From Giardia intestinalis (lineage: Eukaryota), in NCBI GenBank assembly GCA_000002435.2, contig CM018793.1: DNA of 64,000 nucleotides. One strand, given 5' to 3'. Below the pieces are notes generated by a model, which did no database searches, had not been told where the DNA came from, and worked only from the letters and a program-made list of their open reading frames with translations. This document shows, in pieces, positions 49,916 through 52,183 of this stretch. The position numbers and the translations under genes were made by a program. The stretch's first letter is position 1, and each line of letters opens with the position of its first letter.

Positions 49916-50955
49916 ATGCCCGCTGAAGTCTTCGAGTTCCAGGCTGAGATCTCTCAGTTGATGAACCTCATCATCAACACCTTCTACTCGTCGAAGGAGA
50001 TCTTCCTCCGCGAGCTCATCTCAAACGCCTCCGACGCCCTGGACAAGCTCCACTTCACCTCGCTCACGCGCCCCAGCGTGCTCGGGAAGCAGAAGGACCT
50101 CAAGGTCGACGTCATCCCGCGCGAGAAGGACAACATCCTCGTTATCCGTGACACGGGGGTCGGCATGACGAAGGCTGACCTCATCAACTGCCTCGGTACG
50201 ATTGCCAAGTCCGGCGCGAAGCAGTTCATGGAGATGATCTCCGAGGGCGCCGACGTCTCCCTCATCGGGCAGTTCGGTGTCGGGTTCTACTCCGCGTACC
50301 TCGTTGCCGAGAAGGTCGAGGTTATCACCAAGCACAACGACGACAGCTGCTTCAAGTGGAGCTCGACGGCTGGCGGCACGTTCGAAATCGAGGAGTGCCC
50401 GCGCGACTACTTTGGCGAGGAGCTCCAGCGCGGCACCGAGATCATACTCCACCTCAAGGAGGACCAGAAGGAGTACCTGAAGGCCGATCGCCTCGAGGAA
50501 CTGATCAAGAAGCACTCCATGTTCATTGGCTACCCGATCTACCTGTACAAGACGCGCGAGGAGGAGGTAGAGGTCGAGAGCGAGCCGGAGAAGAAGGACG
50601 ACGAAAAGAAGGAGGACGAGAAGAAAGAGGATGAGGTGCACGAGGCTTCTGACGACGAGGAGAAGAAGGAGGAGAAGAAGAAGACCGTCAAGAAAGAGGT
50701 CGAGGTCCACGAGCACGTGAACAAGCAGCCCGCGATCTGGACCAGGGACCCGAAGGACGTCACCGAGGACGAGTACAAGGACTTCTACAAGCAGATCAAC
50801 CCCTCTGACTACGAGGGCCACCTCGCGGTGTCGCACTTCCGTGTCGACGGCGCCGCCCAGTTCCGCGGGATCCTCTTCATCCCCAAGCGCGCGCCCTTCG
50901 ACATGTGGGACGCTCAGAAGAAGAAGACGGGCATCAAGCTCATGGTCAAGAAAGT
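49916..50955 (+). CDS. hspN: HSP90 N-terminal half (HspN exon): ATPase domain, charged linker, start of middle domain; coding exon ends at a trans-splice donor
   Basis: [45 protein letters not shown]...[26 protein letters not shown]...[26 protein letters not shown] is the canonical GHKL HSP90 N-domain. Charged linker [28 protein letters not shown]90 homology stops at ...[25 protein letters not shown] + gt, immediately before GTATGTT. The track ORF tail ([30 protein letters not shown]) is not HSP90. No middle or C-terminal HSP90 domain exists anywhere in the window. Confidence 0.9.
50570..50700 (+). repeat. Low-complexity purine-rich coding repeat encoding the HSP90 charged linker (E/K/D-rich)
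   Basis: gaggaggaggtagaggtcgagagcgagccggagaagaaggacgacgaaaagaaggaggacgagaagaaagaggat... It creates an antisense pseudo-ORF (50021..50836). Confidence 0.5.
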
Positions 50956-50962
50956 GTATGTT
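50954..50962 (+). other. 5' splice donor (GTGTATGTT; canonical Giardia GTATGTT heptamer at ~50956-50962) ending the HspN exon
   Basis: The heptamer GTATGTT is the conserved 5' splice site of Giardia cis- and trans-introns. It sits exactly where HSP90 homology ends (aaa gt|gtatgtt). Confidence 0.6.
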
Positions 50963-51061
50963 ATGTTTGTATGCTGTATGTGTGCGAGACTCCTTTACTC
51001 AAATTTGCGGCGTCGTGCTGCGGTCCTTCTCACGAAAATTCTTTGACCTCGCCTCGCCGGC

Positions 51062-52183
51062 ATGTGGTGCAACAAGTACACCCCCACGCAGCTGGAGGCC
51101 ATGGATTATCATTGCGACGCCACCAGGCTTTTCATCAGCGTCGCCCGGGCAAAAAATCCACCTCATCTCCTTGTCCATGGCCCCCGTGGATCAGGTCGCC
51201 ACACCCGGGTTCTAGGGTACATCAGAAGCGTCTATGGCGTGCAGACGCTGGACTACATTCCATCAACGATGCTATACGAGACCAACACGGACACTTGCGA
51301 GGTCAATATTCTTAGTACTGCATGCCACCTGGAGCTCAATCCATCGGAAATGGGGAACCACGATGTCTTCATAATTCAAACGGTGCTTAAAGAGACTGCA
51401 TCGACGTCTTCCATAGGAGACAAGTTCAAGGTTGTGGTTCTACAGGATGCCGACAAGCTGTCGTTCACGGCCCAGCAGGCATTGCGGCGTCTCATGGAGC
51501 AATATGCTGCAACGTGTAAGCTGATCCTCATGGCTGAGAGCATCTCGGGCCTCATTCCTCCTATTGTAAGCCGTTGCTTTTGTATCCGGGTCCCAGGATT
51601 CTCAGACGAGGAGATAGTCCACGCTTTGGAGACAACTATTACTAAGCATCGACTGATGCAAGGCTTTACCAAAGAAAGCTTGCACGCGCTGTTGCCTGAA
51701 GTTGCTACAGTGGCCCGCGGAGACCTCCGCAGAGCTTTTCTTCTGCTCCAGACCTACCAGTACGCCTCTTCTAAAAAGAACGTCAGTGTCCAATCTCTTG
51801 TTCCAGAATGGGAGACATTGTGCACAAACATAGCTTCCCAGGTGGCAACAGCCCGTAAAATGGCTGCGAAGAGCGCTGAAGCTGCCAGAGCTGGAAAAAG
51901 TGCCAAGCCAGAGCAATCTGACAAGCTTGATGTTATTCGTGTGACGCTTGTGGAGATGCTTAAAAAGGCTATTCCCGCTGATATGATTTTGACAAAACTC
52001 TACGAAGGCTTCAAAGATCAGGCAAAGAGAATGGGCCAACGCTCACCTCAAATACTTCTCAATCTGGCAGACCTTGCCATGGAATATGAGGCACGGCTCA
52101 TCGCTGGGTCCAACCCCCTCTATCATCTGGAAGCCTTCTCATTCTCCTCTCTGAGAGAAATTATTGCCGACACGTCCCGTTGA
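51062..52183 (+). CDS. RFC3: Replication factor C small subunit (RFC3/RFC38-like clamp-loader AAA+ subunit)
   Basis: MWCNKYTPTQLEAMDYH...PHLLVHGPRGSGRHTRVLGYIRSVYG (Walker A), FKVVVLQDADKLSFTAQQALRRLMEQYAATCKLILMAESISGLIPPIVSRCFCIRVP (Walker B/sensor/SRC), and C-terminal ...NPLYHLEAF shared with human RFC3. Confidence 0.85.
   Translation: MWCNKYTPTQLEAMDYHCDATRLFISVARAKNPPHLLVHGPRGSGRHTRVLGYIRSVYGVQTLDYIPSTMLYETNTDTCEVNILSTACHLELNPSEMGNHDVFIIQTVLKETASTSSIGDKFKVVVLQDADKLSFTAQQALRRLMEQYAATCKLILMAESISGLIPPIVSRCFCIRVPGFSDEEIVHALETTITKHRLMQGFTKESLHALLPEVATVARGDLRRAFLLLQTYQYASSKKNVSVQSLVPEWETLCTNIASQVATARKMAAKSAEAARAGKSAKPEQSDKLDVIRVTLVEMLKKAIPADMILTKLYEGFKDQAKRMGQRSPQILLNLADLAMEYEARLIAGSNPLYHLEAFSFSSLREIIADTSR

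Follow-up and report, generated by a model that had tools for sequence, protein, structure and literature searches.

The Hsp90 gene of Giardia is transcribed as two independent halves, HspN and HspC, each carrying part of one spliceosomal intron, and the HspN locus raises the question of where the 5' half of that intron ends when a gene for a subunit of replication factor C (RFC) begins almost directly behind it. The locus was analysed in a 64,000-nucleotide (nt) stretch of contig CM018793.1, referred to here as the window. The split intron of Hsp90 was reportedly described by Nageshan et al. in 2011, by Kamikawa et al. in 2011 and by Roy et al. in 2012. To our knowledge, the split introns of Giardia are the only known spliceosomal introns in independently transcribed halves within protein-coding genes, and how the halves meet and how the 5' half leaves its neighbour are central to the system. 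An earlier interpretation of the same DNA made without database searches (the sequence-only reading) had proposed that the 5' intron half overlaps the 5' end of the RFC gene, with the roughly 100 nt between splice donor and RFC start codon acting as a whole as the pairing or regulatory element and also as the RFC promoter. The distance is indeed of that size, 106 nt from the donor at 50956 to the ATG at 51062, and the functional 5' intron half is its first 47 nt, 50956-51002, made up of the donor, a 26-nt arm and a cleavage motif. The answer for this locus is already known and has been in print since 2012 (Hudson et al., PMC3510501).

We hold, with a probability of about 0.88, that HspN gives rise to a read-through precursor, that the functional half at 50956-51002 anneals to HspC, and that a cut directed by the motif removes the RFC tail. 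Transcription of HspN, which has no poly(A) signal, would run past the 5' splice site at 50956 into RFC, and the arm at 50968-50993 would anneal to a 27-nt stretch of the separately transcribed HspC pre-mRNA. The spliceosome would then join the HspN and HspC exons, and a cut at the motif at 50991-51002, the same motif as is used for the 3' ends of Giardia's small nucleolar RNAs (snoRNAs) and small nuclear RNAs (snRNAs), would free exon 1 and its intron half from the RFC-containing tail. The coordinates, the motif, the pairing and its limits, the conservation break and the comparison with G. muris come from the present work; the amplification of the read-through RNA by reverse transcription PCR (RT-PCR) and the cleavage at the motif come from the literature, and we infer the RFC promoter. 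The features of the locus are the following.

49916-50955, plus strand: HspN, exon 1 of Hsp90 (codons 1-345 and the GT of Val346), from Pfam and the mature junction in the RNA-derived contig L011
50956-50962, plus strand: extended 5' splice site GTATGTT, read directly and matching the Giardia consensus
50968-50993, plus strand: 26-nt arm pairing with the HspC 3' intron half, from the helix search, shuffles, cofolding and the pair table
50991-51002, plus strand: 12-nt RNA 3'-end processing (cleavage) motif TCCTTTACTCAA, identical to the variant most often seen by Hudson et al. (2012)
51003-51061, plus strand: 59-nt spacer, tail of the precursor before processing and putative promoter and 5' untranslated region (UTR) of RFC, from the drop in identity and the lack of above-chance pairing with HspC
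51062-52183, plus strand: small subunit of replication factor C (orthologue of human RFC3 and yeast Rfc5), from Pfam DNA_pol3_delta2 and RFC_C

The open reading frame (ORF) starting at 49916 encodes the N-terminal 346 amino acids of Hsp90 (Pfam HSP90, 8e-48; HATPase_c) and is 100% identical to the Giardia lamblia WB members of the HspN cluster. From the donor through 51010 no base differs from the WB sequence given by Hudson et al. (2012, Suppl. Fig. 2 no. 41); the window carries the WB-type HspN locus of G. lamblia assemblage A, with the reference-type allele. The last bases of exon 1, ...AAGAAAGT, end at 50955, and the canonical donor GT stands at 50956. In L011 (Logan SRR3602120) the mature exon junction reads AAGAAAGT joined to GTTTATC, and the HspC acceptor of assemblage A reads ...CTAACACGCAG followed by GTTTATC; these two observations together fix the end of exon 1 at 50955 and the start of the intron, GTATGTT, at 50956. 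The sequence-only reading had thus placed the splice donor near its true site, although the intron starts two bases past the 50954 it gave; the string it quoted corresponds to window 50954-51061 (108 nt). L011 encodes an uninterrupted Hsp90 of 704 amino acids, that is, an mRNA with both exons joined exists, and the full-length GenBank proteins BAJ33526.1 and KAE8305296.1 belong to the same cluster. The product of the downstream ORF is a clamp-loader subunit of position E. Its closest solved relatives are human RFC3 (PDB 6vvo_E, 3e-47) and yeast Rfc5 (7sgz_E, 8e-42), and for this reason the 'RFC3' of the sequence-only reading and the 'RFC subunit 5' of the literature are one and the same gene.

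Whether the whole segment or only part of it pairs can be judged against the HspC locus, which lies outside the window. It was recovered with a chimeric Hsp90 query of 232 amino acids, leading to P0242, the G. lamblia HspC ORF reading through the 3' intron half, and from the P0242 cluster to the HspC loci of assemblage A (L016-L025), P15 of assemblage E (L009), GS of assemblage B (L010) and G. muris (L007). Exon 2 of the assemblage-A loci agrees with the mature junction, and their acceptor, ...ATAACTAACACGCAG followed by GTTTATCACAGACGAA, contains the fused branch-point/3' splice site CT[AG]ACAC[AG]CAG, for which P15, GS and G. muris have equivalents. Positions 50968-50989 (TGTATGCTGTATGTGTGCGAGA) form 22 contiguous base pairs (bp), one of them G.U, with HspC TCTCGCACACATACAGTATACA; after a 1-nt bulge in the HspC partner, CTCC (50990-50993) pairs with GGAG for another 4 bp. 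The partner stretch measures 27 nt and ends 25 nt before the acceptor. Complementarity to the region upstream of the HspC acceptor, which the sequence-only reading had anticipated, is therefore present in the form of this helix at 50968-50993. The best helix in 300 shuffles averaged 10.3 bp and reached at most 17 bp, compared with the 22-bp core, and cofolding of the two trimmed halves gave -52.4 kcal/mol against -23.6±3.2 for shuffles (z = -9.1). The 26-nt arm and its 27-nt partner equal in size the stretches removed in the published deletion constructs HspNΔ26 and HspCΔ27 (PMC8494341). A 5-nt linker separates GTATGTT from the arm, and the unpaired nucleotides, 12 after the donor and 25 before the acceptor, add up to 37. 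Giardia introns are reported to be 35-45 nt long (PMC6679479), so that donor and acceptor are left about as far apart as in an ordinary short Giardia intron.

The pairing does not extend beyond the functional half. RNAduplex applied to the full 106 x 150 nt returned uninformative end-to-end duplexes, and a search for contiguous helices and the cofold gain relative to shuffles were used instead. With the 150 nt upstream of the HspC acceptor, 50956-51002 showed an interaction gain of -32.0 kcal/mol (shuffles -4.9±2.5). The spacer at 51003-51061 gained -3.8 kcal/mol with the same region, within its own shuffles (-5.4±2.7), and its best helices, of 10 bp with 3-5 G.U pairs, are at the level of chance; it showed no above-chance pairing. 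Folding of the whole 106-nt segment on its own was no better than that of shuffles (z = -0.11), and Rfam and tRNA scans of the window returned no matches. As the gain is confined to 50956-51002 and nothing above chance is seen in the spacer, the pairing element is the first third of the segment to which the sequence-only reading had assigned this role: the proposal holds for 50968-50993, about one quarter of the segment, and fails for 51003-51061.

The comparison between Giardia assemblages draws the boundary at the same place. In both P15 and GS, HspN is followed by RFC at the same position and spacing. The donor, arm and motif are 100% identical to WB in P15 and about 91% in GS; identity falls to 62% and 71%, respectively, in the 59-nt spacer and is 87% and 81% in the RFC coding sequence, so that the conservation break falls exactly after the motif. 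The four substitutions that distinguish the helix of assemblages A and E from that of B all preserve pairing (AU>GU, GU>GC, CG>UG, UA>UG). The donor GTATGTT, which is the extended 5' splice site consensus of Giardia (PMC5224939), is unchanged in assemblages A, E and B and reads GTATGTG in G. muris. In G. muris the two halves share a 16-bp helix, TGTGCGTCAGCCGCTG with CAGCGGCTGACGCGCA, which is unrelated to that of G. lamblia, and its 5' half reads GTATGTGTGTGCGTCAGCCGCTGTGTGTTGTGTGTT-TCCTTTACTCAA. The motif there is followed by a convergent gene and not by RFC, and nothing homologous comes after it. Because the G. muris motif precedes a convergent gene, the read-through from HspN into RFC is a feature of gene order in G. 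lamblia and not of the splicing system.

These observations bear directly on the view that the entire segment of about 100 nt is a pairing or regulatory element overlapping the promoter and 5' end of RFC. In its favour, RFC sequence is indeed part of the primary transcript (PMC3510501), and some islands in the spacer are conserved. Against this stand the chance-level pairing of the spacer, the break in conservation at the motif, and the lack in G. muris of any homologous sequence past the motif, where the neighbour is convergent. The whole-segment view is largely refuted by these data and we regard it as highly improbable; the 59-nt spacer is not part of the pairing element or of intron function.

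Two G. lamblia observations on the HspC side of the helix may be added. The assemblage-A loci fall into two alleles (L018-L020, L022, L023 and L025 versus L016, L017, L021 and L024), one of which has CGCATAC for CGCACAC in the helix arm, so that with an unaltered 5' arm G.U would stand in place of a G-C pair, and ACACAAC for ACACGAC just past the arm. An AT-rich block, GGGAAATAAAATTAC, lies 130-145 nt upstream of the HspC acceptor (L016 ~1300-1330; L009 2755-2775; L010 2757-2777) and is kept in all G. lamblia assemblages. It is a likely candidate for the initiator of the HspC pre-mRNA, in which case the 3' half would be about 130 nt long.

The element that would release the 5' half, missed in the sequence-only reading, is TCCTTTACTCAA, which shares its first three bases with the pairing arm. 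The 64-kilobase window holds no second match even if one mismatch is permitted (0.27 expected by chance), and in about 150 kilobases of related loci the strict motif occurs at HspN intron halves only. A degenerate form, HCMTTYHHTHAA, was also tried and gave six matches against 3.1 expected, which is not significant; the other five comprise two inside ORFs, two at or beside ORF starts in AT-rich sequence, and one at 2102 in the coding region of an E1-like gene. Hudson et al. located the 12-nt motif at snoRNA and snRNA 3' ends in Giardia as well as in every 5' half of a trans-spliced intron then known (PMC3510501). All 12 positions are identical in WB, P15 and GS, compared with 62-71% identity in the flank that follows, and both HspN copies of G. 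muris retain the motif (TCCTTTACTCAA and TCCTTTACTTAA), in keeping with the report of Xu et al. (2020) that it is present in trans-spliced genes of G. muris (PMC7641422).

How the HspN transcript itself ends follows in part from what the plus strand lacks. No plus-strand AGTRAA occurs between 49715 and 54671, which bears out the observation in the sequence-only reading that no poly(A) signal stands between donor and ATG, and the HspN precursor is for this reason not ended here by the mRNA poly(A) pathway. Hudson et al. detected by RT-PCR a precursor that continues from exon 1 of Hsp90 into the ORF of RFC, and name it as a dicistronic precursor of Hsp90 exon 1-intron half and RFC subunit 5 (PMC3510501). 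Their primers oAH1 and oAH2 map to window 50869-50890 and 51145-51167. By rapid amplification of cDNA 3' ends (3' RACE) the same study found that precursors with trans-intron 5' halves are cut at the 12-nt motif (Hudson et al., 2012, PMC3510501). The choice put forward earlier, between an end of the pre-mRNA inside the 100 nt and read-through to RFC, was a reasonable one and resolves into both in a sense: the precursor reaches RFC, and the functional half ends at the motif. By the same token, overlap of the intron half with RFC holds for the unprocessed precursor only, as the processed unit ends at 51002, 59 nt before the RFC ATG. Reads are assigned to HspN in the nanopore supplement of Bilodeau 2022, and no HspN 3' UTR entry appears among the rows listed there, which is not decisive. 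Further along the plus strand, a canonical AGTRAA is also lacking behind RFC (stop at 52183) and behind the gene that comes after it (52250-53197), and first appears at 54671; an AATAAA some 50 nt past the RFC stop may act as a variant signal.

The same motif could in principle act as a transcription terminator, in DNA or in nascent RNA, so that HspN transcription would stop at about 51002 and read-through would be rare noise. The poly(A) signal AGTAAA is part of its opposite strand, TTGAGTAAAGGA, and the convergent gene of G. muris has its stop codon and its poly(A) signal at the motif, which would suit an element that forms 3' ends on two strands. Products of RT-PCR that span the motif have, however, been cloned for the HspN locus and for several others, and the motif is also found between non-coding RNAs in dicistronic precursors (PMC3510501). 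We consider a terminator very unlikely.

The opposite strand of the motif deserves a comment in its own right. AGTAAA lies on the minus strand at 50994-50999, and the variable position 6 of the motif (T/C) mirrors the R of AGTRAA; by a rough estimate, the chance of a 12-mer consensus having AGTRAA on its reverse strand is about 0.3%. In both HspN copies of G. muris (6062-6073 in L003 and 6062-6073 in L002) the end of a convergent minus-strand gene falls within or at the motif, with the stop TAA within AGTAAA in L003 and TAA followed by GTAAA in L002, which means that the same 12 bp serve both strands. The AGTAAA in the reverse complement is not mentioned by Hudson et al. (2012, PMC3510501). 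Judged from these sequences, the motif could be a two-strand 3'-end signal.

The HspN copies of G. muris lie on different chromosomes (L002 4997-6070, CM016925; L003 4997-6070, CM016928), the L003 copy being syntenic with G. lamblia. Their 100% identity extends over 1074 nt, beginning 4 nt ahead of the ATG and stopping at the ninth base of the motif, with unrelated sequence on either side. Such a block corresponds to the RNA expected after processing, with the start site and the cleavage site as its two ends, and suggests either a duplication by way of RNA or a gene conversion restricted to the unit under constraint; an artefact of the assembly is also possible.

For RFC, transcription most likely starts from an AT-rich initiator of its own in the spacer, with GAAAATT as the candidate. 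The islands conserved in assemblages A, E and B are TGCTGCGG (51016-51023), GAAAATT (51034-51040) and CGCCGG (51055-51060). GAAAATT lies at -28 to -22 of the RFC ATG, farther from the start codon than is usual for the AT-rich initiators of Giardia. The RFC promoter proposed in the sequence-only reading is plausible on these grounds, for the 59-nt spacer only. The spacer can also form a hairpin, TTGCGGC-GTCGT-GCTGCGG (51005-51023), which starts 3 nt past the motif. Its 7 bp are kept in WB, P15 and GS by one-sided C>U changes only and its loop varies; with no double compensatory change, support for it is weak.

Alternatively, RFC might have no promoter of its own, its mRNA being the downstream product of motif cleavage of an HspN-driven precursor in an operon-like arrangement. 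A dicistronic precursor has been detected, and the last 20 nt ahead of the RFC ATG are rich in GC and not in A. On the other hand, the AT-rich GAAAATT is kept in three assemblages amid an otherwise diverged spacer, and the adjacency of HspN and RFC is absent in G. muris. The 3' product of the cleavage would moreover be uncapped, and translation in Giardia reportedly requires a cap. We consider an operon-like origin of the RFC mRNA unlikely. It is similarly doubtful that RFC expression depends at least in part on the HspN-driven read-through precursor, with the cut at the motif both freeing the intron half and making a translatable RFC 5' end; if it did, the clamp-loader subunit would be coupled to the heat-inducible Hsp90 promoter.

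Several points weigh against a read-through precursor that is cut at the motif and followed by an independently initiated RFC. Cleavage at the HspN motif itself is presumed from the general statement of Hudson et al. on trans-introns, and, as these authors point out, RT-PCR cannot order cleavage and splicing (PMC3510501). Data on the RFC transcription start site were looked for and none were found. The GC-rich sequence immediately before the RFC ATG is unusual for Giardia initiators, and an RFC promoter of its own would imply a 5' UTR of roughly 20-28 nt.

Upstream of HspN lies an eIF2B-epsilon-like gene. In L011 (3001-5115), Hsp90 is flanked by the upstream neighbour of HspN and the downstream neighbour of HspC; evidently the mature trans-spliced mRNA was carried into the assembly, giving rise to a chimeric 'locus' that is good as evidence of the junction and a trap for synteny analyses. 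The protein encoded by exon 1 ends ...IKLMVKK(V), and relatives with an unsplit gene continue KKVFITDEC. In seven relatives from metagenome and Logan data (P0003, P0004, P0121, P0122, P0160, P0236 and P0241), 67-73% identical to Giardia HspN where measured, Hsp90 is unbroken across the Giardia split site (…KLMVKKVFITDEC…). Within this set of relatives, the Hsp90 split looks specific to the Giardia lineage.

The locus agrees closely with what is known of trans-splicing in Giardia. It is the described locus of the 5' half of the intron that is trans-spliced in Hsp90, with the donor GTATGTT and a 26-nt complementary stretch, and shows no difference from it. The cleavage motif is the exact commonest variant of the Giardia 3'-end motif (Hudson et al., 2012, Nucleic Acids Research 40:10995, PMC3510501) and as an element is likewise without difference; its placement, just after and 3 nt into the arm, agrees with the description given of every trans-intron 5' half. 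Roy (2017) names four hallmark features of the trans-introns of Giardia, and read counts for the trans-spliced Hsp90 junction are published (PMC5224939). The features of such introns found here are the extended 5' splice site, the partner locus, the extended complementarity, the cleavage motif and the joined mRNA. The 5' halves of dynein heavy chain beta introns 1 and 2, dynein gamma and p68 helicase have the same four-part layout of 5' splice site, arm, motif and, behind these, an unrelated sequence or ORF. In the Hsp90 half, which is compact, the motif starts 35 nt after the donor as against 17 nt in p68; in the four earlier trans-introns the distance was 34-93 nt (PMC5224939). The present data contribute the motif as the limit of pairing and as the point where conservation breaks, and the finding of a different helix beside a retained motif in G. 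muris. They leave current understanding unchanged, and their value is in closing the question at this locus and in correcting the idea that the whole segment is intron. Beyond Giardia, the polycistrons of kinetoplastids and nematodes likewise involve a read-through precursor of two unrelated genes that is resolved by RNA cleavage and not by a terminator. In contrast to these systems, the downstream cistron in Giardia receives no spliced leader and very probably has an initiator of its own, and the signal for cleavage is a Giardia-specific 12-mer held in common with the 3' processing of snoRNAs and snRNAs.

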